The notes under the pieces: generated by a model
Told to the model about the DNA's origin: nothing
The model's input: the letters and a program-made list of their open reading frames with translations, nothing else
The model's database searches: none
Assembly (NCBI GenBank): GCA_019913005.1
Contig: JAIOHL010000124.1
Span: 31,107-95,106, forward strand
Direction of reading: 5' to 3'
Length of the DNA: 64,000 nucleotides
From: Anaerolineae bacterium
GTDB taxonomy: Bacteria > Chloroflexota > Anaerolineae > Aggregatilineales > J027
Position numbers and translations under genes: made by a program
Part shown: positions 9,461 through 47,936 of the stretch, in pieces
How positions within the stretch are numbered: position 1 is the stretch's first letter
Layout: every line of letters begins with the position of its first letter

Positions 9461-10585
9461 CTAATGATCGTCGTGATCTAACAAATCCTCAATCACACGC
9501 AAATCCTGTGTGGCGAATTTATCTTTGGCGATGAGTTCTTGAAGTTTGCGAACTTCTTGCGTCGAGATTTTGCTGTTGCGGGGGTTAAAGACATGATTAA
9601 AGGCCACCCGATAAAGCCGCACGCGCACTAGACGGGGTAGATATTCGGTGGGACTGACATCAGGGGTGATATGGCCGGTAGGTAACAAAATGCTGGCTAA
9701 CAAAATCGTCGCGCCCCACCATTGAATAGTGGTGAACCGTTCGCCCAAAAAAATGAACGACAACGAAATTGAGACCGCCATCTCTAAAATGACCAAGAGG
9801 GTGGTACGAACGCTCCCCAGACCTTTGACTCCTATAAACATCGTCAGGCGGGAAAGGGCGGTTGTGGCGGCAAGACCTAAAATTGCCCACCATGCGTCAA
9901 TATCACCGCTGGTCGGAGCATCAGGGAACAGAGGCAGATTGTAGGCTAAACGGGCTACTGCAACCACCACCGCCATTGTCGTCAGCACATAAAAAGCGAC
10001 GGTTTGGGCAGGCATGTCGTAGAGGGCACGCTGGCTCATGACCACCGTCCCAGCAAACAAGAGGGCATTCCCCATCATTAGGCCAATGCCAAGCCAATTA
10101 GTTTCACCAGCGACTCCACCCGCAATCAACAATATGCCCAGCATGGCAATCCCGGTACGCAGTATGATGCGCCAACTTAACTGCTGACCGCTGATTCGGG
10201 TCAAAATCATCACAAAGACCAGATAGAGGGCGTTAATTAATTGGGCCGTTGAAGCGTTTAACAGAGACAGTCCGTTATAGTACATCAACGAACCGATGCC
10301 GTTGACCGAGCCTATAGCGATGCAGTTCATTAAACCGAGGGGGTAGATATAAAGATATTGCCTAGCAAAAAGGCGGTACACCAACCACAACAACACCGCG
10401 GCCAACACCGTGCGGACGGCTGCAACGGTAAAGGGGTCAGCGCCGTTATGCAGGGCTATTTTGCCAAATACCGGATTCATCCCCAAGAAAATGGGGGTAA
10501 GTAGGGCGGCGACCAGTCCTGACTGTTTTTCAAGCCGTTTCAAATTCATCAGTCCAGACTGTTTTTCAAACCATCTTCGCTTCAC
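9461..10585 (-). CDS. EamA/DMT-family exporter with a ~70-aa soluble C-terminal extension
   Basis: Ten predicted TMs in two EamA-like repeats; hydrophilic tail YLPRLVRVRL...DHDDH. Alternative start at 10549. Confidence 0.85.
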   Translation of the reverse strand: MKRRWFEKQSGLMNLKRLEKQSGLVAALLTPIFLGMNPVFGKIALHNGADPFTVAAVRTVLAAVLLWLVYRLFARQYLYIYPLGLMNCIAIGSVNGIGSLMYYNGLSLLNASTAQLINALYLVFVMILTRISGQQLSWRIILRTGIAMLGILLIAGGVAGETNWLGIGLMMGNALLFAGTVVMSQRALYDMPAQTVAFYVLTTMAVVVAVARLAYNLPLFPDAPTSGDIDAWWAILGLAATTALSRLTMFIGVKGLGSVRTTLLVILEMAVSISLSFIFLGERFTTIQWWGATILLASILLPTGHITPDVSPTEYLPRLVRVRLYRVAFNHVFNPRNSKISTQEVRKLQELIAKDKFATQDLRVIEDLLDHDDH

Positions 10586-10593
10586 ATGACCCC

Positions 10594-11880
10594 TTATTGC
10601 GCGGGAGTCACATCCACAGGGACGGGCACGCGATTGGTCAGCGGAATTTCGATATGAAAGGTGCTGCCGGGCATTTTTTCAACGTCCTGACCCTGACTTT
10701 CAACGTGGATTTTACCTCCGTGTGCCTCGATGATACTTTTACAAATGGATAGCCCTAGCCCCAACCCACCTCCACGAAAGGCGGTTTTGCTGGTGGAATG
10801 GTGCTCGGTTTTTTCAAAGGAATAGAAACTTTCAAAGATACGGTGCTGTTCTTCAACTGGAATCCCAATACCCGAATCGTGAACGGTGATTTTGACCACT
10901 TCGGGGGTCTCGACATGATTGATCGAGACCTTACCCCCATCAGGCGTGAACTTAATGGCATTGCCAATGATATTTGCCAGCGCCAAACGCATCAGTTCAA
11001 AATCTACCATCAGCTTGGTGGGCCACCCGTCGCGGCTAAATTCGACATTCACATTGCGCTGCTGGGCAGCCTGCTTAAAGTCATCCAGCGCATACTGGAT
11101 AATTTCGCCCAAATTCGATTGGGCCAGATTCAATTCAATTTGCCCGGTGGTCAAGCGGTAAACGGTAAAAATCTCATTAATGACATCATGTAGGCGCTCA
11201 ACCGACTCGACCAGTGCATCCACATACGCCCCAATTTCAGGGCTGGACTGAGTTAATAGCTGAATGGGTGGCGCGGTCTGCAATAAACGCCCATAGCCAT
11301 AAATGATGGTCAGCGGCGTGCGGAGTTCATGCGCAGTACGTTTGATAAAGTCGTCTTTGATGACATCCAGTTGGCGTAGTTTGGAATTCGCCGCTTCCAG
11401 ATCACGCAGGCGCTTTTCAAGATGTTCGGTCAGTTCTTTGTGATAATTGCGGCGGGCCTCTTCGGGGTTGGCAACTTTGGGTAAATCTTTGCCCCCCTCC
11501 AAATAAAAGGCGATACGCTTGGGGAAGGAGGCTACATCAATGGGTTTCGCCATGAAACCGGATACGCCGGAAATAAGCGTCATGGCCCGCTGCTTATCGT
11601 CGGTTTGGGCAGTCAGGGCCACAATGGGCATATCGCGGAACTGTTCAAAAGCGCGGAGGCGGGTCGTTACTTCACGTCCGCTCATATCCGGCAAATTGAT
11701 GTCCATTAAGATGAGGTCGGGTTTGTGCTCCAATGCCGCATCAATGCCCTTTAACCCGGTCTCGGCGATAATGATGGTGTAGCCTTTTGGCTGCAAAATA
11801 CGCTTCACCAACGTCGCATTCGAGGGGTTGTCCTCGATATAGAGAATTTTCTTCGGCTTTGGAGCAGGCGATAGTGTCAT
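10594..11880 (-). CDS. Receiver-first hybrid histidine kinase (REC-HisKA-HATPase)
   Basis: ILYIEDN...LMDINLP...ALTA...KP receiver; HELRTP H-box, NAIKFT, DSGIGI and GLGLGL boxes. Confidence 0.93.
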   Translation of the reverse strand: MTLSPAPKPKKILYIEDNPSNATLVKRILQPKGYTIIIAETGLKGIDAALEHKPDLILMDINLPDMSGREVTTRLRAFEQFRDMPIVALTAQTDDKQRAMTLISGVSGFMAKPIDVASFPKRIAFYLEGGKDLPKVANPEEARRNYHKELTEHLEKRLRDLEAANSKLRQLDVIKDDFIKRTAHELRTPLTIIYGYGRLLQTAPPIQLLTQSSPEIGAYVDALVESVERLHDVINEIFTVYRLTTGQIELNLAQSNLGEIIQYALDDFKQAAQQRNVNVEFSRDGWPTKLMVDFELMRLALANIIGNAIKFTPDGGKVSINHVETPEVVKITVHDSGIGIPVEEQHRIFESFYSFEKTEHHSTSKTAFRGGGLGLGLSICKSIIEAHGGKIHVESQGQDVEKMPGSTFHIEIPLTNRVPVPVDVTPAQ

Positions 11881-11901
11881 CGCGTCCTTTCCCCCAGTTC
11901 C

Positions 11902-13569
11902 CTAATTTAGGCTGTCAATAATTCGTTGCAATAATTCTTCGTTTAGGAATGACCCCTTTTGCAAAAATGATTCTACCTGTCCGGCAAGGCGGCTGCGTTC
12001 GACAGGGGTCAGTTCTTTGGCGCTGAGTACAATCACCGGAATGTCCCGTAATTCAGGGGTGGCCTTTAAACGCTCGACCACCTGAAAGCCATCCATTTCC
12101 GGCATCATCAAATCCGTCACAATCAAATCGGGCTTTTCTTGCATAGCGATTTCAAGCCCTTCCCGTCCATTTTGGGCAATGGTGACTTCATGGCCTGCCC
12201 CGCCCTCCAAAATTCGGCGAATCAAACGGGCCGAATCTTCATTGTCTTCAATCACCAACACACGCCGCGCATTGGATGTGCTGACCTTGCCAACCTCAGT
12301 TAAGAGACGATCCGTCGGCAGCGATGGAGTACGACTGGCGTTCGAAATATCCACTTGTTTGGCCCAACGCTCACCCAAGATTTCCTTCTCAACCGGGAAG
12401 GTATGGCCCGTGCAGTTAAACACCACTACGTCGTTGGGTTTGATGACCCCGCGCCGCACCAATTTGACTAATCCAGCAAAACCGACAGCGGTGGCTGGCT
12501 CAACCGAAATACCATCATTCCGCGCCAAAATGCGGGTGGCTTCAAAGGCTTCCTCGTCGGTGGCACTTTCGGCGGCCCCGCCATACTGCTGCATCAATTC
12601 ATACAGTAGTTGATAGGCCCGCCCGGGATTGCCGGTGCTCAGAGTCGCAATGACCGTTTCAGGGTTTTCAACGGGCACGGCCACCGACATCCCATTGTTA
12701 AAAGCATCTACCATCGGGGCACATCCGGTAGATTGGATAATCCCTAGCGAAGGCACCTTGTCTACCAAACCAAGCTCTAGCAATTCTTCAAAGCCCTTTG
12801 CAGCACCGATTGGCCCCATACCGCCGCTGACGGGTTGAATAAACCAATCCGGGGCACGCCAACCTAATTCTTCGGCAATTTCATAGGCGATGGTTTTCAT
12901 ACTTTCCATCGCGGCAATATTTTTGATGCCCTGATCGTAATGAATACCTTGACTTTGGGCAAAACGGACAGCGATTTCTTTGGTTTGGTCATAAGTCCCG
13001 GTAACGTTGACCACCTCCGTCCCATACAAGGCTACCTCTCGAATTTTATCACTAGGCACGAGGTTAGGGAAAAAAGCCCAAAGTTTAATCGCGGCGCGGG
13101 CAGCATAGGCCGAATAAGCAATGGCGACATTCCCCGTACTAGCGACCACAGCTTCTTGAATACCCAATTCCGCCATCGCCGAAATCGCAACTGAGGCTTG
13201 GCGGTCTTTAAAGGAATTGGTCGGGCCTTGACGCTCGTCTTTGATATAGAGATATTTCAGCCCCAGCATCGCGCCAACATTTTTGGCATGAATGAGGGGG
13301 GTATCGCCTTCACCCAACGAGACGATATTTTCGGTATGCTTAATCGGCAGCAGTTCATGATAGCGCCACATGCCACGCTTACGAGTAATAATTTTTTCGC
13401 CCCAGTTGTCACGGCGCAGGGCGTCCAAATCATAACGGGCATAGAGAATATCGTCCCCACAGGTCGGGCAACGTTTGAGCGGACGTTCATAGACGCTGTG
13501 CCAGCCACAGTTTTTACATTCAAGGTGAATCGGTTTCACCTGTGTCGAAGAAAGTTGATCTACGGTCAC
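11902..13569 (-). CDS. Threonine-synthase-like PLP enzyme (fold type II) fused to a C-terminal receiver domain
   Basis: N-terminal CxxC/CxxC ribbon, SLGEGDTPL, TNSFKDR (PLP Lys121), ASTGNV, EPATA and NCTGH. C-terminal VLVIEDN...VTDLMMP...LSA...LQK receiver. GTG start overlaps the TGA of the upstream kinase. Confidence 0.9.
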   Translation of the reverse strand: MTVDQLSSTQVKPIHLECKNCGWHSVYERPLKRCPTCGDDILYARYDLDALRRDNWGEKIITRKRGMWRYHELLPIKHTENIVSLGEGDTPLIHAKNVGAMLGLKYLYIKDERQGPTNSFKDRQASVAISAMAELGIQEAVVASTGNVAIAYSAYAARAAIKLWAFFPNLVPSDKIREVALYGTEVVNVTGTYDQTKEIAVRFAQSQGIHYDQGIKNIAAMESMKTIAYEIAEELGWRAPDWFIQPVSGGMGPIGAAKGFEELLELGLVDKVPSLGIIQSTGCAPMVDAFNNGMSVAVPVENPETVIATLSTGNPGRAYQLLYELMQQYGGAAESATDEEAFEATRILARNDGISVEPATAVGFAGLVKLVRRGVIKPNDVVVFNCTGHTFPVEKEILGERWAKQVDISNASRTPSLPTDRLLTEVGKVSTSNARRVLVIEDNEDSARLIRRILEGGAGHEVTIAQNGREGLEIAMQEKPDLIVTDLMMPEMDGFQVVERLKATPELRDIPVIVLSAKELTPVERSRLAGQVESFLQKGSFLNEELLQRIIDSLN

Positions 13570-16500
13570 GATGCTAAATTCGCCTCAGTTTCTCGGACGG
13601 CCTTGATAAGATCGGTCTCGACAAACGGTTTGACCAAATGGTTGGTCGCCCCAAGCCGATAGCTGTGCTGGGTATCGGTACTGATACTGCATACAATCAC
13701 CGGAATGTGATAGGTCTGATCATTGTCTTTCAGTTTTTCCAACACCTGCCAACCATTCCGATTGGGCATGTTGATGTCAAGCAAAATCATCATGGGGTTA
13801 TGATTGGCAACCATTTCTTCTGCTTCTTCGGGGTTGGTTAGGCCAATGACCTGCCAACCTTCTTTGGTGAGATAACGACGATAGAGATTAATCATGCCCA
13901 ATTCGTCATCAATTGCCAAAATAACCTTCTGACGGGAGGGCTGACGTTCAGCTTTGATTTCATCTACCAAATTATTGAAGTCCGTGCCGAATTCTCTGGT
14001 ATCGGACATCTCCTCTTCGGCAATTTCGGCTGCCGACGGAGGGGGTGGTCCTAGCGGGATGGTAACATAAAAGGTTGAGCCGACCCCCTCTTGGCTTTCC
14101 ACCCATAACCGTCCACCCTGTAACTCTGCCAACGACTGGGACAGTGGCAGACCCAAACCTGTACCCTCAGCGGAACGAGTGGTGGAGTTGTCAATTTGTT
14201 GGAACGCCTCAAAGATCGTATTGAGATATTCCTGTGGAATCCCGATACCCGTATCCCGCACCGCAACGGTAATCATGGGCGGTTCAACGCCGTTTTCAAT
14301 AAAAGCACTGAGAGTAATGCTCCCTTGTTCAGTGAATTTGGCAGCATTAGAAATCAGATTGAATAAGATTTGGCGGGTACGGAATTCATCCCCAAACGCC
14401 TTGTCAATAGACTCTTCAATCTCGGTATGCAGACGAAGATTCTTGTCGCGGGTCAAGCCGATGGCGCTGGACATCACCCCCTTGATGACGGGAGCCAGTT
14501 CGAAGTAATCCAGCGAAAGTTCCATCTTACCCGCTTCGATCTTGGCTTGGTCGAGGATGTCATTCACCAAACCGAGCAGATGTTTCCCGCTGGAATGAAT
14601 AATCTGGATGTCTTGCTTTTGCATGTCATTAATCGGGCCGTCAATGCCCTTCAAAATGACACTTGAGAAGCCGATAATCGAATTCAGCGGGGTGCGGAGT
14701 TCGTGACTCATAGCAGCAAGGAAATTCGTCTTGAGCTGGTCAATTTCACGCAGGCGTTCGTTGGTGCGCTGCAATTCCTCGACCAGCAAGGTGCTTTGAA
14801 CAACCGCCGAGACCGCTGTACTGAGGGCTTGCAGCAAGCGTAGGGTGTCTTCGCCAAACTGGGCCTCGCGTTGGCCTTCCAAGCCCATAACCCCAATCAG
14901 GCTTTCACCACTGGTCATCGGAAGGTAAATCGCGGAACGGGCTGAAACATCCATTGGGGTGTAGGGGCCAAGTTCAAAATTTGGCACGATGATCGGGGCG
15001 CGGGTTTCCGCAACTTGCCCGGCTAGGCCCTCACCAATGGCAACTTTGACAGTGGGTTCAATCGAATGTAGGGTCTGTGAATCGCCCTCTTGGACGGCAA
15101 TCACCATTGCTTGAGCCGCTAACCGATTGCGCCCGACTTCATTGAGGAAAAAGACCACACTGCTCGCGTCCATACGATTTGCCAACACCTGACTGACCGT
15201 TTCCAGCATCACCGAAAGGTTAGGCATGGCGGCGGCGAAGGTGGTGACATCAAACAAGAAGGCCATTTCACCAGCACGCTGCTGGGAGATTTCAAACAAC
15301 TGGGCATTATCAATGGCGACGGCTAGTTGGTCGGCCATTGTAGTCAAAGCCTGCACGTCATCCTCGGTAAACAGACCCGCTTGATTCGACTGCACGTCCA
15401 ATGCGCCCACAACACGGCCTTTCACAACTAGGGGGAAGGCGATTTCAGAGCGTGTATCGGGCAGGTGGGGATTGGGCCGATGGGTTTCACTGAGCGCCGT
15501 ATCCGCTACCAAGACGGGCATACCACGACTGGTGGTTTGCCCAATGACGGAACGTGACCCGACAGGCAGACTGTGATTCAGGCTCAACAATTTTTGCCCC
15601 GCTTCACCTGTCGAAGCACGGAGGATGGCCTTCTGTCCGGCAGCATCCACCATAAAAATCTGAACATGGTCATATTGGAAAGCTTCACGGATGAGGTCTA
15701 CCACGCGCGGGAACAGTTCGTCCAAATTCAAAATAGAGGTCGCAGCACGGCTCACCTGTGCCGAGGTTGTTAGTTGACGGGCACGCAGTTCGGTTTGTTC
15801 AAAGAGACGCTTGTTTTCCAACTGCACGGCGGCTAAGTCAGCCAGTGACTGGTAGATGCGAATTTCGCGTTCTTGATGCTCACGGGTCTCGGCTGAGGCC
15901 AACAAAATTGCGCCGATTAAGCGGGTGGGGGTGCGCAAGGGTACGATCACAAACGAACTAATACGCAAGGCCTTATAACCCAAGCGGGCATCGGTTGAGA
16001 TCGCGGGATCGCGGGAAACATCATCCACCCACTTCATCCTAACGGTTGCGAGATCGTTCCAGAAAGGTAGTTGATTGCGCGTAAACCGAAGGCCTTGCAA
16101 GTCAACCAGTTGGTCACGTCCCCATGACGTGGCGATTTCGAGTTCGGCATTTTCGCTGTTCCAATCTTCGGAACGCAGACTAAGCAGAAATACCTTGTCC
16201 ACAAGCGCATCGGCGGCATAGTCAATCACTGACTGTACAATTTCATCACGACTTTCGGCGTTGGCAATGGCACGGCTGGCTTGATAGAGGACACCAGTTT
16301 CTTCCAATGATTCCTGCGTCTGCCTAAACAGCAGGTCATTTTCAACCAAATAGGCTGCTGCGTCGGCCAATGTCGTAATGAATTGATATTCATCGGGCGT
16401 GAAAATATGAACTTCGCGGAAGCCCATCGAAATACGCCCGACAACGCGACCACCGACGGACAGCGGTACACTTAGAATAGACTGATAGGGCGTTTGGATG

Positions 16501-19500
16501 GCCCGTAATTGACGGACGATCTGATTCATCGTCGCTTCGGACTCGTCATCAATGGACTGGATGTAATATTCATCACGGGTCATTGGGTCAAAATCGCCAA
16601 TCGGCTCACCGGTTTTTGGCACAAGCGGCAGACTGGGTATTTCAGCAAATAAGGGGTCTTTGCTCCATTCCAAACCAAAATAGAAAGAGGCAATATCTTC
16701 TTGCGTGCGCTGTAACAAAACATCTACCCGTTCAGGATTGAAATTCAATAGCTCCATGCGGATGGTATCCAGCATTTCTTCAAGGTCACGCGCCTCGGCA
16801 ATGCGGCGACTGCTGCGATAGAGATTGGCAACCGCACGCAGGGCATCTTGGGTACTTTGGAATAGGAAAATACTATCCAATGCGAGGGCCGTCTGGTCAG
16901 CGATGGCCGTCATAAAACGCCGATCTTCGGCCATAAAGGAATGTTTATCGAAATAGACCACCGCAAACCAACCAAGAGTACGACCTCTGGCCCGCAACGG
17001 AATTGAAGCAAACGACTGGATACCGCTTTGAATGGCCTGCAAGCGCATATTAAATTCAAGGGTTTGGTCAAGAAAACCGATGCTCTGATCAATGTTAGAG
17101 ACAATAATCGGCTCTTCGCTCATCAACAAATTACGTGGTAGCGCCAGCAAATCTACATCAGTAACCCCCGCATAACTTTCCGGCCATGCCGCCACCACAC
17201 GGGTTTGCAGCGGCCCACGATCCATGCCTTCTTGCAAAACCACATAGACCTGATTGGGCATCAAAGTCAGCAACTGATTGACTAGCACATTGGCGAGGTC
17301 ATTAACGCTGGAGGCGGAGGTAATTTGGCGATTGGCCTCATACAGCGCGGTGGTTTCGCTTAGGCTATCCTGCAATGCTTTTTCGAGTTCGCGCAGTTCG
17401 GTAATTTCTTGGAAGACCGCCACTACCGACGAAATCTCACCGCCCTCATTGCGAATGGGCGCGACGTTTGCGAGCAAGTCCACCCGGCGACCATCCGGGT
17501 ATTCCACCGAGATGTTTTCTGCACTGACGATGGCCCCCTCACGCAAAGCAATGGTGGTGGGGAATTCTTCAGACGGGTAAAGCTCGTCCGTGCCCAGTTT
17601 ATAAATCGGGAAGGTGTTTGATGAAAACAGAGCTTTATTGACCCCGCCGCCAAAAAGATCAACAGCGCGTTGATTGGAAAGCAGGCTGTTGCCACGCGGG
17701 GCTAACAAGAGCACGCCGGCAGGCATGGCTTCAAGGGTAGATTGCAGTGTCTGGCGTTGATTTTCAATGGCCGCAAAGAGCCGCTGATTTTCGGTAGCGA
17801 TGGCAAGCTGGCTGGCAAGCGTGGTTGCCAATTGAATATCGCGTTCATCCAAATCGTGCTGTGATGCACGCCGACCAATTAAGAGCGCCCCGATCACCAC
17901 TTCATTGCTGGTCATGACCGGAACGGCTAGATGCTTGCCATATACGATATGTTCTTGGGCAGAAAGCTTGCCGAACGTCGGGTGAACCCGTTCATTGACC
18001 AAAACGACTTGGCGAATTAACACGGATTCAGTAACGGCATTACGGTCACGCTTCAGGTTCATACGTTGCGGCATAAAGGGGGTGTCGCCTGATTCTTGGG
18101 GTGAAAAGGCCGCTACCTGACGGAGCGATTGCCCATCCGTATCCAAAACCCCAAACCACCAGCGGCCAAAATCACCGGGGTCAGACACGGCGCGGAACAG
18201 GCGGTTTACGTCAGACTCAAAATCCGTGCTGATACGACTAGCCAACTGACCTGCGTCGGCCAATGCCAATGCTCGCCGCGCTTCTTTTTGGACTTCTTCT
18301 AGCAGGCGGCGATTTTCAACCGCGATTGCCAATTGGTCACCAACTGCCGAGGTAAAACTCATGTAATTTTCGCTAAAGGCACGCGGCGTTTGACTACTGC
18401 ACACCAAAACCCCAAACCATTTTGCACCCGTAACCAGCGGCATAAGATAGAGGGTTTCGGCATTAAACGTCCTCAGCAGGTAGCCCAAGATTTGGTCAGT
18501 GTCCTCAAGATCGTTCAGTTCATGGGCATGAATGAGCATGGGGCTACGGGGGGCAAGTTCAAATTGGGCCGAAAGCCCCTGTTGTAATAAAGGTACACGC
18601 TGACCAGTCTCCCAAGCGGAGATACTGCCGATACGCGACCACAGATGCGCGACAATGACATTTGGAGCCAAATGGGACGGGAAAGGATCGGCCAACAAAA
18701 TCGCTAGGCTATCAAGATTTTCATAATAGCCTAACTGCTCAGTGATAAGGGCATAAACGGCTTCAATATTAAGTTCAGCAGCACTACTGACCGTGCGGGC
18801 CATTTCATAGAGACGCTGCGATTCGCCAAGCGCCATCTGGGTTTGCTGGAATAGGCGGGCATTGTCTACCGCGAGCGCCACACGTACCGCAACCGCATCA
18901 ATCAAAGCCTGTTCATCTTTGCTCAACTGGGCACGCTGCGGTGCTTTGGTCTCGATCTGCCCAATTGGTTTGCCACCCACTGAAATTTGAGTGCTGTATA
19001 CGGAATGTTCATCACTTGGTGGAGGCAGCAGATTGCCGTTTTCTGGTGTATCAGGTTGAATCGGCTTGACACCGATCAGGTCATATTGATAACCCAACTG
19101 CACATCATCGGGTTGGATACGGGCAAATTCTTCCCATGCTTTTTCGGTTAAGCGCTGATTGAGCAAGGCAACTTCATCCACTCGCTGTTCAAGTTCTTCA
19201 ATCAGGCGGGCATTGTTGATCGCAATCGCCAATTGGTCAGCCAACACTTGGAAAATTTCAATATCTTCCGGGCTATAGGCTTCGGGGCGGATACTTTGAA
19301 TATCCAACGCACCGATCACTCGGTCTTCAACCTTGAGGGGCAGGGCCATTTCTGAGCGGGTATTGGGCAATTCCACATTGGGCTGCCAAGGAACTTCAGT
19401 GGAAGTGGTGTCGCCGGCGATGACCGTGACACCCAGCGCGGTCACACGGCCAATCACGGAATTTGATCCAACCGCCAGTTTATGTTTTTTGGCAAGAAGG

Positions 19501-20972
19501 CGCTGTCCGGCCTCGCCTGTGCTGGCAACCAAGACAGCATACTCGCCAAGATCATCCATTAAGAAAACTTGGGAGTGGTAGTAATCGAATTGTTCGATAA
19601 TGCGGTTAATGGTGCGATTCAAAACAAGACTTTGGTCGCGCAATCCGGTAATTTCGCGGCTGATTTCCGCAACAAGGTCAAGGTCACGGATACGGGCTTG
19701 TACCCTCGCCTGCAAATCATCCACCAACGTTTGGGTGCGCTCGGTAACATTATTAAACAAGGTGGCAACCCGACCAAATTCGTTGGATTCGACAGCGGGG
19801 AGTCGGACAGTCAAATCACCGCGATTGACCCGCGCCAAGCCATCCGCAATGGTTTCAAAACGGCGAGAAATCTGAGTGGTCTCATACCACAACAAGATAC
19901 CTGTGATACCGAGCAAGCCGAGAAATATGGCCGCGAATATCCCTAGTGCCAAGCGGGTTGGGCCAGCGACTTCACTGGCTTCCATAGACACGATCACCGT
20001 CCATACTGGCTGACTGGTCGTATCCGATAGGCTGGAAAAGGGTCGTGTAATAGAAGTGGCCGCCAAATAATCGGTGTTATTTTGGCGATACTCAATGGCT
20101 TCTTGAGGGAAGTCGGTTAGCAACGTATTTGCCAATGAACCCGTTAGTTGTTCGCCAACCGAGGTCGAGCGACCATAGAGTAAATTTGGCTCGGAGGCCG
20201 CAATATAATAACCATCCTCATCTACCACATGAATAATTTCATCACTGCTTTCGCGTTCTGTAATGCCCCGAACAAGCCAATCTATGTCCATATCTATGGC
20301 GAGAAGGGCAATTACGGTATTTGTTTCGTCCAAGATAGGAGTCGTCAACGTCACGATTTGCTGGAAGGGTTCTGTTGGACGGCCCGTGGCATCTCGCACC
20401 ACCACCACATCCGAAATCCAGAACTGTCCTGTACGGCGCAATTGCAGACCCGACTGAACAAATTCTTCGCTGCGGCGATTTCTGAGATCGGAGATTGACA
20501 CAATCTCGATATTGTCGGTTCGCCCCGAACGCTCCAAAGCCACCAATTCACGCCCACTGATGCCGACCAATCGGATCGCGTGATAGAGGGGCCGACCAAT
20601 GAGCAGTTCCTCAAATCTCCGCGTGACAGATTCGCGGGCGAGATTGTCTACCTCGCCACTGGTGCTGCGGCGATCCAGTACATCAACAATGCTGGGGGTA
20701 ATATAATTGGTAGCAAGGTTATCGAAGTCGGCGGCTACGATTTCAAACGGAACGCTCAACTGCTCACCATTTTCATCCGCATGTTCGCTCAAGTCGTCGT
20801 TGACATTGGTACGCACGACGTTGTTGATCTGGGTAGTGACAGCAATCAATACTAAGAAAGACATCACCACAAACGCTGTAATAATTATCAGCAGTTGTGT
20901 GCGGAAGGGACGGTTAATGAACCAACGAAATGGCCCAAAGCTAGAATGTGGCTGTATTTTTCGGTCTTGCAT
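13566..20972 (-). CDS. Giant membrane-bound hybrid histidine kinase: TM-Cache-TM-HAMP-~9 GAF (one degenerate)-PAS-HisKA-HATPase-REC
   Basis: Repeated LA(I/V)A(I/V)(E/D)NxxL GAF ends; PAS (LEAMPAGV...FQEIT) lying within the GAF array; SHELRTPLNS, NLISNAAKFT, DTGIGI and GTGLGL boxes; terminal receiver AIDD...LLDINMP...KP. Confidence 0.93.
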   Translation of the reverse strand: MQDRKIQPHSSFGPFRWFINRPFRTQLLIIITAFVVMSFLVLIAVTTQINNVVRTNVNDDLSEHADENGEQLSVPFEIVAADFDNLATNYITPSIVDVLDRRSTSGEVDNLARESVTRRFEELLIGRPLYHAIRLVGISGRELVALERSGRTDNIEIVSISDLRNRRSEEFVQSGLQLRRTGQFWISDVVVVRDATGRPTEPFQQIVTLTTPILDETNTVIALLAIDMDIDWLVRGITERESSDEIIHVVDEDGYYIAASEPNLLYGRSTSVGEQLTGSLANTLLTDFPQEAIEYRQNNTDYLAATSITRPFSSLSDTTSQPVWTVIVSMEASEVAGPTRLALGIFAAIFLGLLGITGILLWYETTQISRRFETIADGLARVNRGDLTVRLPAVESNEFGRVATLFNNVTERTQTLVDDLQARVQARIRDLDLVAEISREITGLRDQSLVLNRTINRIIEQFDYYHSQVFLMDDLGEYAVLVASTGEAGQRLLAKKHKLAVGSNSVIGRVTALGVTVIAGDTTSTEVPWQPNVELPNTRSEMALPLKVEDRVIGALDIQSIRPEAYSPEDIEIFQVLADQLAIAINNARLIEELEQRVDEVALLNQRLTEKAWEEFARIQPDDVQLGYQYDLIGVKPIQPDTPENGNLLPPPSDEHSVYSTQISVGGKPIGQIETKAPQRAQLSKDEQALIDAVAVRVALAVDNARLFQQTQMALGESQRLYEMARTVSSAAELNIEAVYALITEQLGYYENLDSLAILLADPFPSHLAPNVIVAHLWSRIGSISAWETGQRVPLLQQGLSAQFELAPRSPMLIHAHELNDLEDTDQILGYLLRTFNAETLYLMPLVTGAKWFGVLVCSSQTPRAFSENYMSFTSAVGDQLAIAVENRRLLEEVQKEARRALALADAGQLASRISTDFESDVNRLFRAVSDPGDFGRWWFGVLDTDGQSLRQVAAFSPQESGDTPFMPQRMNLKRDRNAVTESVLIRQVVLVNERVHPTFGKLSAQEHIVYGKHLAVPVMTSNEVVIGALLIGRRASQHDLDERDIQLATTLASQLAIATENQRLFAAIENQRQTLQSTLEAMPAGVLLLAPRGNSLLSNQRAVDLFGGGVNKALFSSNTFPIYKLGTDELYPSEEFPTTIALREGAIVSAENISVEYPDGRRVDLLANVAPIRNEGGEISSVVAVFQEITELRELEKALQDSLSETTALYEANRQITSASSVNDLANVLVNQLLTLMPNQVYVVLQEGMDRGPLQTRVVAAWPESYAGVTDVDLLALPRNLLMSEEPIIVSNIDQSIGFLDQTLEFNMRLQAIQSGIQSFASIPLRARGRTLGWFAVVYFDKHSFMAEDRRFMTAIADQTALALDSIFLFQSTQDALRAVANLYRSSRRIAEARDLEEMLDTIRMELLNFNPERVDVLLQRTQEDIASFYFGLEWSKDPLFAEIPSLPLVPKTGEPIGDFDPMTRDEYYIQSIDDESEATMNQIVRQLRAIQTPYQSILSVPLSVGGRVVGRISMGFREVHIFTPDEYQFITTLADAAAYLVENDLLFRQTQESLEETGVLYQASRAIANAESRDEIVQSVIDYAADALVDKVFLLSLRSEDWNSENAELEIATSWGRDQLVDLQGLRFTRNQLPFWNDLATVRMKWVDDVSRDPAISTDARLGYKALRISSFVIVPLRTPTRLIGAILLASAETREHQEREIRIYQSLADLAAVQLENKRLFEQTELRARQLTTSAQVSRAATSILNLDELFPRVVDLIREAFQYDHVQIFMVDAAGQKAILRASTGEAGQKLLSLNHSLPVGSRSVIGQTTSRGMPVLVADTALSETHRPNPHLPDTRSEIAFPLVVKGRVVGALDVQSNQAGLFTEDDVQALTTMADQLAVAIDNAQLFEISQQRAGEMAFLFDVTTFAAAMPNLSVMLETVSQVLANRMDASSVVFFLNEVGRNRLAAQAMVIAVQEGDSQTLHSIEPTVKVAIGEGLAGQVAETRAPIIVPNFELGPYTPMDVSARSAIYLPMTSGESLIGVMGLEGQREAQFGEDTLRLLQALSTAVSAVVQSTLLVEELQRTNERLREIDQLKTNFLAAMSHELRTPLNSIIGFSSVILKGIDGPINDMQKQDIQIIHSSGKHLLGLVNDILDQAKIEAGKMELSLDYFELAPVIKGVMSSAIGLTRDKNLRLHTEIEESIDKAFGDEFRTRQILFNLISNAAKFTEQGSITLSAFIENGVEPPMITVAVRDTGIGIPQEYLNTIFEAFQQIDNSTTRSAEGTGLGLPLSQSLAELQGGRLWVESQEGVGSTFYVTIPLGPPPPSAAEIAEEEMSDTREFGTDFNNLVDEIKAERQPSRQKVILAIDDELGMINLYRRYLTKEGWQVIGLTNPEEAEEMVANHNPMMILLDINMPNRNGWQVLEKLKDNDQTYHIPVIVCSISTDTQHSYRLGATNHLVKPFVETDLIKAVRETEANLAS

Positions 20973-21001
20973 AAAAGCCTCTTGAACGCCTCAGGTGCGT
21001 T

Positions 21002-23194
21002 TTATTGGGAGGTCAATGGGTCAATGTTTAACGAAATGGTGGTTTCTGGCGTACCGAGTGCAAGGCCCAACTCCTTGACCGCCACCTGCAAAATCTGTCG
21101 AAAATCGGTTTGAATGCTCAGTTTTTGCGAAATCTCATTGAGCAGCCGTTCACGCTCAATTAACTGCTGGCTTTGTTCAAACAACCGCGCATTTTCCGCC
21201 GCAATTGCAAACCGCTCCACCAATTCTTCTGCCGTTTGCAGCATCCCTTGATTAAATTGGGCTACCTCAACGGTACATTCAATCGCGCCGATCACCTCAC
21301 CACGCAAAACAACTGGCAAGGCAAAGGCAATCTGATTTTCGGTTACTTTGGCTGTCACCGGTTTGCGGCGTTGGATGGCCTGCTTTTGCAAAAACGTCCA
21401 ATCTTTTAACGCGGCGGGCTGTCCTCCGGTGCTATAGGCAAGGTCGTGATGCTGCGTGAAATATTCCTGCCAACCTTCACGTGCCGCCTGCGGGCTTTGA
21501 ACATCGCCATTCGCACCATTTAAGGATGACTCGCCGACTAACAGACCAAACAAGCCAGTGGCGAGTTCGGTGGTCAGCGCCAAGAAAAAGCTAAAGTCGC
21601 GTTCCGAAAATGCCTCTAGCGCAACGCTGTGCAAATCTAAGATGCCGATTAGTTGCTCACGTGCAAACATGGGCACGGCCAGTTCGGTGCGGGTGTGTTT
21701 AAAAACATCATGTTTGGTATAGATCGGTGCTTTTTCATAATCCACGACCAATACCGGACGATTTAGCATAGCGGCGTGGCCTATTGGGGTCTGATTATCT
21801 AATCCAACACGATAACCCTGTACAAATAGGCGGCGACCTTGTTCACCCGTGCCAACCCGCATGACCGCGCTGTTGGTGGCCTCGTCTATTAGAAATACTT
21901 GAGCATAATCTACGTTAGGATAGTGTTGGCGCACCGAGCGCACAAATTCTTCGAGCAAAACATTCGCTTCAGAGACGGTTCGCAGCAAACCAGCCGTCTC
22001 CGTAAATAGGCCGACCTGCTTGGATAGCCGCGTTTGGCGGGCTTCGGCATCGGCGACGCTATTTTGAAAGACAGTGGTCAGGTCTACAAACGTATTATGC
22101 ACCTGCCCAATTTCATCGGAGCGTTTGATAGTCGAGAAATCAGGGTCACGTTCACTTAGGGCAAATTCGACCATCATGCGGTTTAGGCGGGACAACGGCG
22201 GGACAATTTGTTGATAGGTCAGCAGTAACCACACGGCACTTGGAACAAGTAGCAGCACAATCGCCCCACCTATCACCAAAGGGATATAAGTGCTTACGAG
22301 TGGGTTGACCACTTCGGAAAAACGCATTTCCGTGACCAGAATCCACGATGTACCCCCCACGCGCTGATACGTACCTATCACATCTGCCCGCAGTAAGGGG
22401 CTTTCATAGCGTTGGGGGTCAAGCCGGGCACTGTTGTCGGACAAAGCCGGATGCCGACGGTAATTCTGGAAAACCAAGACCCCGCGTTCGCTGGTTACAA
22501 GCAACTGCCCATTCTCATCCAACAAGAAAAGGTCGGCGTTGGGTAAATTTTGGAGTTCGGGTTGTTCACCAAAACCGCGCAGGATGTTCGGTAGATTGTC
22601 CGTCGCCTCGCTGTCGAGATTTTGGGTCAGCACCACATAGCCAATCTGCTGATTGTCTCCCTGAATCGGCACAATAATATCAAGCAGGGGTTCATTAAAT
22701 GGGCCGGGATAAATTGAGCCGATGGTCGTATCGGTGATCTTGCGACTGATAATTTCCAACGACTTTTGATTGACCTCGATATTGGCTTGGCCTGCCTGTG
22801 CTACGGTAATCAGACTTGGATGCATCAGGCGAATACGCACAAGAGATAAATTGCTCGACCAAATACGGTCAAGGGTCTGATTTGCTTGTTGAATCGCGGA
22901 GGGGTTGGTACCGTTGATGTCAAGGGCGGCCTGATAGAGTGCAACATCGTATGGCTGAACAGCTAGGTTGGTGGACGCCGTCGTCAGGTCATCAAGCCGC
23001 TGTGCAAAAGTTTCGGCCTTAACATCAGTAATAATTTCAACAGTGTCTTCCGCTTGATTGGTCTGGGCTTGAAAGCGCAACGTTAGGGCAATTATGCCAA
23101 TAATAATCAGGGGAATCAAAATGGTCAGCAGGAAACCGAGGCTAAATTTCGCCCGCAGAGGCCAATCAAAAGGTCGGGGCAGATTACGTTCCAC
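21002..23194 (-). CDS. Kinase-less membrane sensor: TM-Cache-like-TM-HAMP-GAF-degenerate GAF-stub
   Basis: Two TMs, HAMP (PLSRL...DEIGQV), GAF (GTGEQGRRL...TRTELAVP) and FAIAAENARLF. No H-box or ATPase motifs. Confidence 0.85.
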   Translation of the reverse strand: MERNLPRPFDWPLRAKFSLGFLLTILIPLIIIGIIALTLRFQAQTNQAEDTVEIITDVKAETFAQRLDDLTTASTNLAVQPYDVALYQAALDINGTNPSAIQQANQTLDRIWSSNLSLVRIRLMHPSLITVAQAGQANIEVNQKSLEIISRKITDTTIGSIYPGPFNEPLLDIIVPIQGDNQQIGYVVLTQNLDSEATDNLPNILRGFGEQPELQNLPNADLFLLDENGQLLVTSERGVLVFQNYRRHPALSDNSARLDPQRYESPLLRADVIGTYQRVGGTSWILVTEMRFSEVVNPLVSTYIPLVIGGAIVLLLVPSAVWLLLTYQQIVPPLSRLNRMMVEFALSERDPDFSTIKRSDEIGQVHNTFVDLTTVFQNSVADAEARQTRLSKQVGLFTETAGLLRTVSEANVLLEEFVRSVRQHYPNVDYAQVFLIDEATNSAVMRVGTGEQGRRLFVQGYRVGLDNQTPIGHAAMLNRPVLVVDYEKAPIYTKHDVFKHTRTELAVPMFAREQLIGILDLHSVALEAFSERDFSFFLALTTELATGLFGLLVGESSLNGANGDVQSPQAAREGWQEYFTQHHDLAYSTGGQPAALKDWTFLQKQAIQRRKPVTAKVTENQIAFALPVVLRGEVIGAIECTVEVAQFNQGMLQTAEELVERFAIAAENARLFEQSQQLIERERLLNEISQKLSIQTDFRQILQVAVKELGLALGTPETTISLNIDPLTSQ

Positions 23195-23195
23195 G

Positions 23196-24878
23196 TTAAT
23201 TCACCTCTACTTCAACACCGGGTTGTGCTTCAATCTCGGTGGGTACACCCAGTCGGACAAGTGTCTGGTCAGTGCCAAGCGAACGATTAAACACTTGCGA
23301 GGTCACATTCACCAAACGGGCCAGATTACGGGCATCCTGCAATTCTGCCGCGACCTGACTCACCAGTTGTTCACGCACCGCCACCCGCTGGACTTCATCA
23401 AATAGACGCATATTTTCAAGGGCCAACGCCAAACGGTTGGTCACTTCTTTGACAAATTCGACTGTTTGGTTTGACCATCCCTCACCACTGTTTTCAAAAA
23501 TAACTTCCCCAATCGTTTGAGAACCAACCGTCAGCGGGACCATCATGCGCTGACCACTGCCTGTTTGATCTAATTGAGGAGCATCTGATAGGGGGGTCGT
23601 CGCAGGCTGCCAGCGGCGCAAGGTGCCTTTATCCCACTGAAAAGCGGTAAGACGTCCACTTTGAGACAGATATGACCCCCACGCCACCCCAACATTTTCT
23701 TGGCTCATACGGCTGACTTCGGCCTGATAGCGCAGTGCTGAGACATTGGCCGCGTCCATTTCTTGGCGAAGTTGTTCAAAATCTGTCCCCAATGTTTCAC
23801 GTTGGAGGGCCGTCGCCAGTTGATAAGCCGCCGCTTGATAAAGCTCGACCTCCCCCTGCGTCGGAATGACATTACTCGAAAGCTGCAAATCCAGCACTCC
23901 GATACACTGACCGTCGCTGGTCAAAAGTGGGAAAGCCAATTCACTGTTGGTCGAAGGCAAAAATGCCTCACGCTGCGGTACGGACACATTCCGATTAAGA
24001 TTCACCGCCGATTTGCGGCGATAGGCTTGGGCAGGGCCGCTTGGGTTATCAAGGTCAATACGATAGGCCTCACGCAACAAACGCTGACCACTAAGGCCAG
24101 TCGCGGCAATTAGTACAAGGCGAGGTGTTTCGCCCTGTAAACGATAGATGAGCACATGGTCAACTTTTAGTTCGACGCGCATGAGGTCGGCAACGGCTTG
24201 GAGGGATTGCGAGACTAAGCGTTTTTCATTTAGCTCCGCACTAACCTTTGCCAAGCCGACAATGGACTGTTGAACGTCATCATAACGCTTGACGAACTGG
24301 GCAATATAGTCGAGAAATTGATAGATCAACACCGCTGCAAGTATCAATGAGGGATAAAAAACGGTGGCGATATTGCCCGCTAATTCACGTGAGGGAATCG
24401 GTGATTCAAATGAGTTTGAACTGGTCTGAAAGGCTAAGGTGGTAATTGCTACCCCGGCAAAAAATAGCGTCGCCAACACCAACCCGCGTACACCAATTAG
24501 CAAACTCGCGGTGAGGATGGGCACAATAAACAGCAGAATGATGATGCTATCGGCACGATAATCCAGCACAAAAATCGTAAAATAGGTGATGGCAATCGCC
24601 AGCGTCATGGCGTAAGCCGCAGTGGACAAGCGACCAATCTGCACCAACCACCCAATGCCAATCATCGCAACCGTAACAGGAAGTAACAGCAAGGTATAGC
24701 CGGTTGGGATGGCTGCATTATCCGCAAGGTCTTGGACGGCCAAAACCAAAATGGTGGCAGTGAGCAAAATAGCGATTACCACACTCAACAGCAAAATCGT
24801 GCGGGCGCGACGCAGATCGTCAGGGGATGTGTAGGGGTATCGAACTTGGAATAGGTTGGAGATAAAATTTATACGCAT
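23196..24878 (-). CDS. Kinase-less multi-TM GAF protein
   Basis: About 6 N-terminal TMs, GAF (ATGLSGQRLL...TNSELAFP) and LALALENMRLF. TAATG overlap with the upstream gene supports the start at 24878. Confidence 0.82.
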   Translation of the reverse strand: MRINFISNLFQVRYPYTSPDDLRRARTILLLSVVIAILLTATILVLAVQDLADNAAIPTGYTLLLLPVTVAMIGIGWLVQIGRLSTAAYAMTLAIAITYFTIFVLDYRADSIIILLFIVPILTASLLIGVRGLVLATLFFAGVAITTLAFQTSSNSFESPIPSRELAGNIATVFYPSLILAAVLIYQFLDYIAQFVKRYDDVQQSIVGLAKVSAELNEKRLVSQSLQAVADLMRVELKVDHVLIYRLQGETPRLVLIAATGLSGQRLLREAYRIDLDNPSGPAQAYRRKSAVNLNRNVSVPQREAFLPSTNSELAFPLLTSDGQCIGVLDLQLSSNVIPTQGEVELYQAAAYQLATALQRETLGTDFEQLRQEMDAANVSALRYQAEVSRMSQENVGVAWGSYLSQSGRLTAFQWDKGTLRRWQPATTPLSDAPQLDQTGSGQRMMVPLTVGSQTIGEVIFENSGEGWSNQTVEFVKEVTNRLALALENMRLFDEVQRVAVREQLVSQVAAELQDARNLARLVNVTSQVFNRSLGTDQTLVRLGVPTEIEAQPGVEVEVN

Positions 24879-25987
24879 TACATTTCTACCCATTCATCAT
24901 CATTGGCTGGCATGTGGACGGGCGAAGACTCCTCTAGAGACTCATCGACCACGGACGGCACAAGCCGAATGAACCCCCGATCAGCCCCCAAAATACGGCT
25001 TAATTCAGCCAGCGATGTGCTTAAAATGGTTTCGACATCAGAAATTCCCTGAAACTTAGCCGTGATGGAATTGATAAACGATTGATAGCGGGCGTTACGC
25101 TGGGCTTCTTCAAATAATTGGGCATTTTGGATGCTGACAGCAATTTGGGCTGCAATTGCGGTCAAAATCTCAATCTCGGCTGCCGTAAAATGATGGACTT
25201 GAGTCAGTGCATCCAACCCCAGTGAACCTAAAAATTGATTTTGGACAAACAGTGGCAAAATCATGACCGACTTGATGCCAAAAGCCATCAGGGTCTCGCG
25301 GTTTGGCCCCAATTCCTCAACCGCCTCCGCCACACTGTCAATAACAAACGGGGCAAGCGTTTCTTTTTGTTTTTCATAGACCACATACCCTGCTAATTGA
25401 ATTTTTTGTCCAATCGCGCCGGTAATAGGATATTCCGCCAAAACTGTGCCATAGTCGGGGGCATGATCGTTAATCACAATCCCCACATGGTCAATCCCCT
25501 GTAGCGCCTCAACAATACTTTGACAGGCGGCCACCAGCACCGCTTCACTGGCAAGCTCGGCGCTAACTCGTTGGGCCACCTGAGAAAGCCCCTCATAGAG
25601 TTCAAGGCGTTCACTCAAAAACGAATCTGTATGTGTCCGGCTGGTAATGGTTTGTTGAAGTTGCCACTGTTGGGTTACGATTTGCGCCCATAATTGGCCT
25701 GCTTCCCAAAAAGATTCTGGATGCTGTCCGGAGAGGGTTAGCTCTAGGGTATAGCCACTCATAGGGAGAGACCAAATTTCACCATTGGAGCGAACCGAGC
25801 GAGTGGCAGATAATAGGGAGGATGTTTGAGAAATCAAACGGTGGCTAGTGAAGGACGGCCATTCGGTTTCAGCCGCCCGGAAAGCAGTTTCGATAAACTG
25901 TTCCAGACTGCTCACCTGCGCTGCTTGGGACGGTAAATCGCGGATAATGGTTCTGAGAGAAGCCAAATAAGCCAGCGCATCTTGCAT
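24878..25987 (-). CDS. Soluble GAF-domain protein without an output domain
   Basis: GAF (GIDHVGIVI...ILPLFVQNQFLGSL...IAVSIQNAQLF) followed by the same terminal stub as its neighbours. Confidence 0.82.
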   Translation of the reverse strand: MQDALAYLASLRTIIRDLPSQAAQVSSLEQFIETAFRAAETEWPSFTSHRLISQTSSLLSATRSVRSNGEIWSLPMSGYTLELTLSGQHPESFWEAGQLWAQIVTQQWQLQQTITSRTHTDSFLSERLELYEGLSQVAQRVSAELASEAVLVAACQSIVEALQGIDHVGIVINDHAPDYGTVLAEYPITGAIGQKIQLAGYVVYEKQKETLAPFVIDSVAEAVEELGPNRETLMAFGIKSVMILPLFVQNQFLGSLGLDALTQVHHFTAAEIEILTAIAAQIAVSIQNAQLFEEAQRNARYQSFINSITAKFQGISDVETILSTSLAELSRILGADRGFIRLVPSVVDESLEESSPVHMPANDDEWVEM

Positions 25988-26089
25988 ACGAGTTTCACCG
26001 TTTCAAACCGACTGAGTTCTCCTCAATAGGCTGTCTAATAGGATGAGGAAAATCCCCTGAAGTATTTAAAGGATTCTAGCAATAACACT

Positions 26090-26521
26090 TTATTTCCATT
26101 CCCATACCTGTTCCCCTTGCAACAGACGTTCAATCTGATACGGGAAACGGTCAGGGTCTAGTGGTTTACCTAAAAAGCCATCAAAACCTGCTTCTTTGGC
26201 CTTGCGCATTTGTTCTTCATTCGCCTCGGCAGTTACGGCAACGACGACGGTATCACGCAGTCGTTCGTGAGCACGAACCTTTTGCAACGCTTGGTAACCA
26301 TCTTCATAGGGGAGTCTAATGTCCATCAAAATGAGATCAATGCGGGGCAGCGTATCGGCAAACTGAACGACCTGCCACCCAGATGTCTTCCACTCGCAGC
26401 GTTGGACTCCCATGAAAGCCAACATACGGGCGATCAACACAAAATTCGGCACATTATCTTCTACCACCAGCACATGCGCTTCGCCGGGGTCAACTGAAGT
26501 GCGGTGTCTCGCATCGGTCAT
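26090..26521 (-). CDS. Single-domain response regulator
   Basis: VLVVEDN, LMDIRLP, AVTA and GKP receiver motifs. Confidence 0.92.
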   Translation of the reverse strand: MTDARHRTSVDPGEAHVLVVEDNVPNFVLIARMLAFMGVQRCEWKTSGWQVVQFADTLPRIDLILMDIRLPYEDGYQALQKVRAHERLRDTVVVAVTAEANEEQMRKAKEAGFDGFLGKPLDPDRFPYQIERLLQGEQVWEWK

Positions 26522-26898
26522 ACGCTTTTTCGGCTCCTCAAATAGTGAAGAATCTGGTCTGAAAAGCGGTCAATATCTATTGGTTTAATTATATAACCAT
26601 CACAGCCAGCCTCAAGTGTTATGTCTAAATCAGACTGCATGGCGTTGGCTGTTAGAGCCACCACCGGGATACGCTGTAGGGCCGAGCTTTCACGGATCAT
26701 GCGGGTGGCGGTCAAGCCGTTGATATTCGGCATACTAATATCCATCAAGATTAAGTCCGGTGGATTTTTTAAGGCCAATTGGATCCCCAATTCCGCATTA
26801 TCGGCCTCCTCAAATTCATAGCCTTCTGCCAACAGAATCCGACGCACCAACAACCGATTTTCAAAATTGTCTTCGATGTACAAAATACGTGCTGGCAT
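26518..26898 (-). CDS. Single-domain response regulator, DivK-like (start MPARILY at 26898)
   Basis: ILYIEDN, LMDISMP, ALTANA and IKPID motifs; ATGA overlap with the next regulator. Confidence 0.92.
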   Translation of the reverse strand: MPARILYIEDNFENRLLVRRILLAEGYEFEEADNAELGIQLALKNPPDLILMDISMPNINGLTATRMIRESSALQRIPVVALTANAMQSDLDITLEAGCDGYIIKPIDIDRFSDQILHYLRSRKSV

Positions 26899-47934: not shown

Positions 47935-47936
47935 CG

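Follow-up and report, generated by a model that had tools for sequence, protein, structure and literature searches.

Here, we analysed a window of 64,000 nucleotides (nt) from an Anaerolineae bacterium (Chloroflexota; Aggregatilineales; assembly GCA_019913005.1, contig JAIOHL010000124.1, positions 31,107 to 95,106) that contains a cluster of two-component signalling genes, one of which encodes a threonine synthase fused to a response-regulator receiver (REC) domain and is termed ThrC-REC below. The open reading frame (ORF) list and a Pfam scan placed nine consecutive genes on the minus strand at 26898-9461 (26952 by the mechanical ORF start), with the common orientation and the domains that an earlier note, made from the letters alone, had described (Table 1). 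Inspection of the junctions also agreed with that description: ATGA overlapped RR1 and RR2, GTGA overlapped the giant kinase and ThrC-REC, GAF_A and GAF_B met at TAATG (or in a 16-nt overlap), and GAF_B and GAF_C were separated by 1 nt, with remaining intergenic gaps of 102, 29, 21 and 8 nt. The mechanical start of RR1 is a TTG at 26952; the ATG at 26898, from which RR1 would be 126 amino acids long, is the likely start, and its orthologues are 124–125 amino acids long.

Table 1. Genes of the cluster and domains of ThrC-REC (aa, amino acids; TM, transmembrane segment; PLP, pyridoxal 5'-phosphate; Pfam scores in bits).
Feature	Coordinates	Strand	Description	Pfam score
RR1	26518..26898	-	Single-domain response regulator, 126 aa	Response_reg 86.7
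RR2	26090..26521	-	REC-only response regulator, 143 aa	Response_reg 69.6
GAF_A	24878..25987	-	Soluble, one GAF, no output domain	GAF 56.9
GAF_B	23196..24893	-	About 5 TM and 2 GAF, no output	GAF 56.7 (2 stretches)
GAF_C	21002..23194	-	TM, dCache-like periplasmic domain, TM, (HAMP), 2 GAF, no output	GAF_2 51.7
Giant hybrid histidine kinase	13566..20972	-	2,468 aa; TM-dCache/HK_sensor-TM-HAMP, 8-9 GAF, 1 PAS, HisKA, HATPase_c, REC	
ThrC-REC	11902..13569	-	555 aa; Zn-ribbon, threonine synthase (PLP fold type II), linker of about 45 aa, receiver	PALP 229; Response_reg 76.1
PALP catalytic domain of ThrC-REC	12406..13323	-	Residues 83-388; PLP lysine K121 in SFKDR motif	
Receiver domain of ThrC-REC	11920..12261	-	Residues 437-550; phospho-acceptor D486	
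REC-HK	10594..11880	-	428 aa; receiver, coiled coil, HisKA, HATPase_c	Response_reg 79.4; HisKA 46; HATPase_c 90.1
EamA/DMT-family transporter	9461..10585	-	374 aa, two EamA repeats; cytoplasmic C-terminal tail of about 70 aa	EamA 98.1 (2 stretches)

The sensory domains of the cluster (13–14 GAF, two periplasmic Cache-type domains, one membrane-embedded module and one PAS) were split between one giant hybrid kinase and three GAF proteins that lack an output domain. In the giant kinase, Pfam scored GAF_2 at 300.9 bits over eight stretches, HisKA at 69.4, HATPase_c at 91.9, Response_reg at 71.6 and PAS at 29.6; HK_sensor_dom_bact passed its cut-off (33.7 vs 27 bits), and dCache_1 (39.4 vs 45 bits) and HAMP (23.6 vs 25 bits) both stayed under theirs. 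A hidden Markov model (HMM) built from the GAF domains of this kinase itself marked nine GAF-like segments in it, compared to the eight stretches found by Pfam, and located the GAF of GAF_A at residues 154-288. PDB sequence matches of the giant kinase were confined to the kinase core, which resembled HK853-type structures (1e-39 to 1e-45), and the REC domain; none covered a GAF domain, and hence this search yielded no GAF ligand class. An orthologue at another locus (L081) was 51% identical over the full length. GAF_B gave a weak MASE1-like match (19.2 bits), and hydropathy mapping placed the TM segments of GAF_C at residues 19-37 and 306-324. The Cache-HAMP-GAF architecture proposed earlier for GAF_C was retained with regard to GAF; its dCache_1 scored under the Pfam cut-off (31.1 vs 45 bits) and HAMP was not detected in the window protein, so that both assignments rest on the orthologue in L001, in which dCache_1 (77.5 bits) and HAMP (43.6 bits) were clear. 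REC-HK had no sensor domain besides its receiver.

We examined the enzyme that is joined to a receiver, which had been described as merely ThrC-like and as the possible source of a developmental or cell-cell signalling molecule. The ThrC part passed the equivalog cut-off of TIGR00260 (thrC, EC 4.2.3.1; 185 vs 167.1 bits), just missed that of PRK08197 (299.7 vs 303) and was far under that of the cysteate synthase model TIGR03844 (123 vs 324.9). Its best PDB sequence matches were threonine synthases of Aquifex, Thermus, Mycobacterium and Bacillus (1e-42 to 1e-51), and the top PDB fold matches of an AlphaFold2 model of ThrC-REC (62 homologues, mean pLDDT 81.5) were only threonine synthases, with a TM-score (target) of about 0.8. 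All 26 columns that were at least 90% conserved in 79 stand-alone ThrC representatives were identical in the window protein, including K121 and the four Zn-ribbon cysteines. K121, C34 and C37 were also invariant among ThrC-REC homologues (62 sequences, with identities as low as 49%), and C18 and C21 were conserved in at least 90% of these. The nearest unfused relative was a 420-amino acid ThrC, 60% identical, that is encoded near a phycobilisome-linker gene, which suggests that it comes from a cyanobacterium. All of these tests indicate a true threonine synthase, and the ThrC part is therefore likely an ordinary enzyme of this type, with L-threonine, and not a novel metabolite, as its expected product. 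The metabolic enzyme of the earlier note was thus upheld without its qualifier and without a dedicated signal product, given the equivalog score, the 26 conserved columns and the identity to a stand-alone ThrC, and developmental or cell-cell signalling is pure speculation. Cysteate synthase or another side activity of the ThrC family was rejected as the leading reading on the HMM scores and the conserved columns.

The fusion is widespread within its lineage. At least 120 clusters of ThrC-REC homologues (62–94% identity) all contained PALP and REC, and the named ones among these all belonged to Anaerolineae, Aggregatilineales, Phototrophicales or unclassified Chloroflexota; in databases they are annotated merely as 'threonine synthase'. 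Clustering at 50% gave about six to eight clusters of fused ThrC, including forms of 708–715 amino acids that matched the query in two stretches and are read here as carrying a second receiver after the first. A scan of genome contigs with the full fusion returned mostly generic REC matches and at least 14 full-length loci.

One alternative is that ThrC-REC is a specialised second copy, which on signal would make threonine or a related beta/gamma-substituted amino acid for export via EamA (as a public good, for cross-feeding or as a signal), while a separate housekeeping thrC serves the cell. We consider this unlikely. An exporter-type transporter that is specific to the cluster does lie nearby, the ThrC family includes non-threonine synthases (cysteate synthase was among the PDB and fold matches) and PRK08197 was missed only narrowly, but the equivalog score, the low score to TIGR03844 and the retention of every ThrC-conserved column argue against it, and strong purifying selection on a housekeeping enzyme would agree with an identity of 62–77% between orders. 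The domain scan of the other window ORFs reached about 60 kb, three ORFs at 60–64 kb being left out; among the scanned ORFs of at least 150 amino acids it found no second PALP gene, which also counts against a separate thrC. A homoserine dehydrogenase gene (hom) stood alone at 42090-43121 (+), at a distance of about 15 kb from the nine genes; neither thrB nor thrC adjoined it, and this absence of an adjacent thrC points the same way.

Alignment to CheY confirmed that all five RECs keep the complete phospho-acceptor set (the E/D-D pair, the phospho-Asp, T/S and Lys). The receiver of ThrC-REC has K-G where CheY has K-P. Across the 62 fused homologues, the most distant of which were 49% identical, D442, D486, K538 and G539 did not vary; at least 90% conservation was seen for E441 and for position 516, which is mostly Thr and is Ser in the window protein. 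This residue pattern is as expected of a ThrC-REC receiver that is still phosphorylated and speaks against a vestigial domain. In their alpha-1 regions, RR1, REC-HK and ThrC-REC were alike (EDN..N/S..L-V/I-R/K-R-I-L), which is weak evidence that the three share a phosphodonor.

To compare gene neighbourhoods we used 20 related loci (designated by L numbers), for which gene calls with Pfam labels were combined with BLASTP of the locus ORFs against the nine window proteins. The gene order was repeated in at least 19 independent loci, the ThrC-REC proteins of which were 46–77% identical, and because it recurs with such divergent proteins the arrangement is not due to chance. The proposal of one system thus withstood a survey in which the order was conserved across the Anaerolineae. 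EamA directly followed ThrC-REC, or followed REC-HK, in 18 of the 19 loci with downstream DNA (L090 being the exception), and a GAF-rich hybrid kinase lay immediately upstream of ThrC-REC in 17 of 20 loci and, likewise, in L090; for L013 only 2 kb of upstream DNA was available. REC-HK occupied the same position in L013, L084, L085, L086 and L092 and was absent from L081, L082 and L001-L012. The RR1-RR2 pair headed the cluster in L007, L082/L083, L087 and L088, and in L087 and L088 it was followed by four GAF-only proteins, compared to three in the window. Distant loci of Anaerolineales, with ThrC-REC only about 50% identical, kept the GAF, Cache-HAMP-GAF, kinase, ThrC-REC and EamA genes.

In these distant loci, a gene for a ParA/MinD-like P-loop ATPase separated the Cache-HAMP-GAF gene from that for the hybrid kinase, and the kinase ended in two receivers. 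The ATPase gene was found at 6203-6988 of L001, where alone it was confirmed by Pfam, and L012 had an ORF of the same size (261 amino acids) at 7006-7791. Another variant occurred at 1747-12532 of L090, in which the gene for a 2,753-amino acid GAF/PAS kinase overlapped that for a 715-amino acid ThrC fusion with apparently two receivers, followed by a stand-alone response regulator and a GNAT acetyltransferase; EamA was missing.

In every locus with enough flanking DNA ThrC-REC was beside at least one histidine kinase. This is the constant feature of the cluster, together with the DMT transporter in 18 of 19 loci. The nine genes therefore hold as a unit with regard to their conserved order and not as an obligate set, since REC-HK, the GAF-only proteins, the RR pair, the giant kinase (in L085) and EamA (in L090) could each be missing. 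The position next to rpsB, which had been taken as the mark of a core locus, did not withstand the same comparison: rpsB-tsf-pyrH followed the cluster only in its closest relatives, L081 and L092, and the flanks otherwise differed between loci, so that this adjacency was rejected as evidence for a core locus. Judged by the equal size of their longest contigs, 39 of the 120 best EamA homologues and 14 of the 120 best RR2 homologues are presumably on the same contigs as the top 120 ThrC-REC homologues. The locus is a real, conserved signalling operon of Anaerolineae, and neither the ThrC-REC fusion nor the cluster was described in the literature reached by full-text searches aimed at them.

As the earlier note had stated, no DNA-binding, c-di-GMP, chemotaxis or HPt module was recognisable. 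No HPt, HTH, GGDEF/EAL or CheW domain was found in the nine cluster proteins (Pfam, E ≤ 0.01) or in 30 other window ORFs (E ≤ 1e-4), and cryptic HPt, HTH or GGDEF domains were accordingly rejected for these proteins. The cluster has the hybrid kinase with a C-terminal receiver that is typical of a canonical phosphorelay (the 2,468-amino acid protein) and, within the scanned window ORFs, neither an HPt step nor a DNA-binding terminal regulator of the HTH or Trans_reg_C type, and for this reason it was not filed as one. The term phosphorelay, used for it before, consequently holds in the sense of a conserved two-component unit with five phosphorylatable receivers and is not supported in the strict His-Asp-His-Asp sense. 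The phosphorelays of ArcB, BarA/GacS, TorS and LuxQ-LuxU-LuxO likewise use a hybrid kinase in which HisKA and HATPase are followed by a C-terminal REC, and the best NCBIfam partial matches of the window RECs and kinase cores were BarA, TorS and HrmK-type proteins; unlike these systems, the window cluster had no HPt in the scanned ORFs and no DNA-binding terminal regulator. The sensor-less REC-HK may replace the His-containing relay step.

No riboswitch or leader RNA that might control the operon was found (no Rfam match within 8–28 kb), and promoter and terminator scans for operon boundaries gave counts equal to the shuffled expectation. In the intergenic region upstream of RR1, two 19-nt arms that are 95% complementary and 33 nt apart form an inverted repeat at 26977-27047, which overlaps a promoter-like site at 27028-27000; the repeat was rejected as a conserved operator, as it was not kept upstream of RR1 in L007, L082, L087 and L088.

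RR2 was conserved more than any other member of the cluster. Its homologues formed more than 120 clusters at 79–95% identity, and it was 72–81% identical in loci where ThrC-REC was only 49–64% identical. In L091, RR2 occurred alone (10001-10426), away from any kinase or ThrC gene. Its high conservation and this unlinked copy suggest that RR2 may be a hub protein with many partners. JGI annotations label its homologues 'DivK' (KEGG K11443), which we treated as generic REC similarity. In Myxococcus RedCDEF and Caulobacter DivJ/PleC-DivK, kinases and single-domain receivers without an output domain signal by phosphate partitioning and protein contacts. The window cluster shares the kinases and single-domain receivers with these systems and adds an enzyme-linked receiver and a transporter; there is no evidence for orthology to the DivK partners DivL, CckA, ChpT and CtrA, and neither DivJ, PleC or DivL nor a CtrA pathway was identified in the window.

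The three GAF-only proteins all end in a C-terminal module of about 55 amino acids (24878-25040, 23196-23360 and 21002-21170 for GAF_A, GAF_B and GAF_C, respectively) with the pattern ..NARLFEQSQ..ERErLvNeIt.KL....D...ILQtAV.ELG.ALGa..T.I.L, to which Pfam is blind. The module was also found in L087, L088, L084 and L001, and was kept where ThrC-REC was only about 50% identical. It resembles an inter-GAF linker helix followed by the first helix and strand of a truncated further GAF, and could serve as a stub through which these proteins dock with the giant kinase to form hetero-oligomers.

The prominence of RR2 is in line with another alternative, namely that ThrC-REC senses metabolism or serves as a sink for phosphate: a constitutive housekeeping ThrC whose substrate- or product-bound state would tune the phosphate on its receiver and so bring amino-acid status into the network, with RR2 and unlinked partners as the true outputs. 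That RR2 is the most conserved member would fit many partners, and it can be found apart from the other genes; the receiver of ThrC-REC is at the C-terminus, an arrangement shared with hybrid kinases whose receiver is a sink or intermediate, and a two-receiver ThrC variant exists (715 amino acids, L090). Nothing in the sequence tells this explanation from a phosphorylation-gated enzyme. However, we know of no precedent for a PLP enzyme that gates a receiver domain, and the tight co-evolution with a dedicated DMT transporter is easier to explain if metabolite flux is the output, and we regard a sensor or sink as improbable.

The transporter itself had at least seven hydrophobic segments in a crude hydropathy scan. 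Its subfamily comprised 431 matches at E ≤ 1e-15, all named ones of which were from Chloroflexota, and the closest relatives also carried the extra cytoplasmic tail of about 70 amino acids; homologues are annotated merely as 'DMT family transporter'. Of the E. coli exporters, RhtA acts on threonine and homoserine, and EamA on cysteine and O-acetylserine and, if overexpressed, on homoserine as well (PMC11657104). RhtA and EamA/YdeD have the two EamA repeats and multi-TM DMT architecture seen here, and the window transporter is genomically tied to threonine metabolism. The likeness is at the family level only; the window subfamily is confined to Chloroflexota and its closest relatives have the tail.

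Taken at the level of sequence, these data point to a branched His-Asp network in which a phosphorylation-gated threonine synthase would be the conserved enzymatic receiver and the DMT transporter would handle threonine or homoserine, a reading to which we assign a probability of about one half. Post-translational output through the ThrC-linked receiver and EamA appears to be its most economical form. The post-translational circuit for synthesis and export of a small molecule that was proposed previously is thereby kept in outline, by the conserved order, the intact receivers and the lack of a DNA-binding module, and loses its dedicated signal molecule. In the proposed mechanism, the giant kinase would integrate periplasmic Cache-type, PAS and many GAF signals, with the three GAF-only proteins possibly serving as accessory sensors, and would autophosphorylate on its HisKA histidine. 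Phosphotransfer would then be direct, without HPt, to its own REC, RR1, RR2, the REC-HK receiver and D486 of ThrC-REC; the sensor-less REC-HK would be a second-tier kinase/phosphatase that reshapes the distribution of phosphate, and RR1 and RR2 would be phosphate sinks or allosteric partners of the kinases. Phosphorylation of D486 is predicted to alter the oligomeric state or interdomain contacts of the dimeric PLP enzyme, by which threonine synthase (O-phosphohomoserine to L-threonine) would be switched up or down. By analogy with E. coli RhtA/EamA, the transporter may move the amino acid whose pool shifts, either exporting threonine when the enzyme is on or acting as a homoserine 'safety valve' when it is off.

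Known systems offer partial parallels for such an output. Like ThrC-REC, the CheB methylesterase, the PleD/WspR diguanylate cyclases and the HD-GYP protein RpfG join a phosphorylatable CheY-like receiver to an enzyme and have a post-translational output; those are signalling enzymes with an N-terminal receiver, whereas ThrC-REC is an anabolic PLP enzyme with a C-terminal one. Plant threonine synthase (PDB 2c2b, Arabidopsis), which was among the best fold matches, also combines a threonine synthase core with an appended regulatory element; in the plant enzyme this is an S-adenosylmethionine-activated N-terminal extension at a real branch point, whereas the C-terminal receiver of ThrC-REC would imply control by phosphorylation.

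Several points weigh against the gated-enzyme reading. Residues 389-418 of the ThrC-REC linker were disordered in the AlphaFold2 monomer, in which the domains were confident, and no docking interface can be drawn from it; the C-terminal placement of the receiver is also unlike that of most enzyme-type response regulators. The set of kinases varies, as L085 had no giant kinase and only a response regulator preceded ThrC-REC there, and so does the composition of the cluster, as L090 had no EamA gene. The transporter reached no substrate-specific NCBIfam model (only TIGR00950, 37.5 bits vs a cut-off of 230) and had no PDB sequence match. Other parts of the genome could encode an HPt protein or a DNA-binding regulator. 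Threonine synthase does not stand at a branch point in bacteria whose methionine is derived from acylated homoserine, and for this reason the benefit of regulating it is in doubt. A bolder form of the gated-enzyme reading, in which the sole threonine synthase of the class Anaerolineae would itself be a response regulator that is switched directly by a giant kinase (2,000–2,700 amino acids, 8–9 GAF) without a transcription step, and in which a co-evolved DMT transporter would buffer or export, is put forward only tentatively and is somewhat doubtful.

It is very improbable that there is no integrated system at all, with genes that are neighbours for reasons of expression or history, a ThrC receiver that is an unphosphorylated structural or dimerisation add-on and kinases that signal to unlinked DNA-binding regulators, as the variable composition of the cluster, the lack of HPt, the K-G in place of the usual K-P and promoter and terminator scans no better than chance would allow, because the invariance of D442, D486 and K538 and near-invariance of E441 and Thr/Ser516 are hard to explain without phosphorylation, ThrC-REC lies beside a histidine kinase wherever flanking DNA suffices, and its gene overlaps the kinase gene by stop/start overlaps both here and in L090.

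Other genes in the window had features of their own. Directly upstream of the cluster, 27076-30981 (-) encodes a TgpA-like transglutaminase membrane protein (843 amino acids, with a long Pro/Thr-rich linker) and a surface protein of the Hvo_1808 family (450 amino acids); this flank was not shared with the upstream flanks of L082, L087 and L088. On the other side, between pyrH and cell-wall genes (for a PBP and an MraY-like protein), 4915-6216 (+) encodes a 433-amino acid membrane protein with DUF4231 and SLATT_1 (the SMODS/SLOG-associated 2TM effector type) and a Pro-rich tail, and this gene was also present in the close relative L092. Fer4_19, a divergent 4Fe-4S mono-cluster domain, and two CDGSH iron-sulfur domains occur together in a 250-amino acid protein encoded at 35767-36519 (+). 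An operon for a Liv-type ABC transporter at 44499-51917 (+) includes a substrate-binding protein with a C-terminal Fasciclin fusion (576 amino acids) and an unusually long permease (811 amino acids). Four genes at 52006-58683 (-) encode a DUF5682 protein (927 amino acids), an AAA_5 MoxR-like ATPase, a VWA CoxE-like protein and a 443-amino acid protein without a Pfam match.

Known targets of two-component systems are transcription, second-messenger enzymes, chemotaxis and proteolysis. In the literature searched, no core enzyme of amino-acid biosynthesis was described as being controlled directly by phosphorylation; if the gated-enzyme reading is true, ThrC-REC would be the first primary amino-acid biosynthetic enzyme to serve as the effector domain of a response regulator, and would represent a new type of output. 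Current annotations ('threonine synthase', 'DMT family transporter') hide this signalling context in databases, and since the proteins are soluble and modular the hypothesis is directly testable. If ThrC-REC is the housekeeping enzyme, then an abundant class, the filamentous Anaerolineae of sludge, sediments and mats, would gate threonine synthesis with an elaborate sensor array. Two-component signalling would then have the supply of threonine as a direct output, and through it growth or cross-feeding in filamentous communities, which could help to explain the slow, syntrophy-dependent growth and the amino-acid cross-feeding of Anaerolineae.

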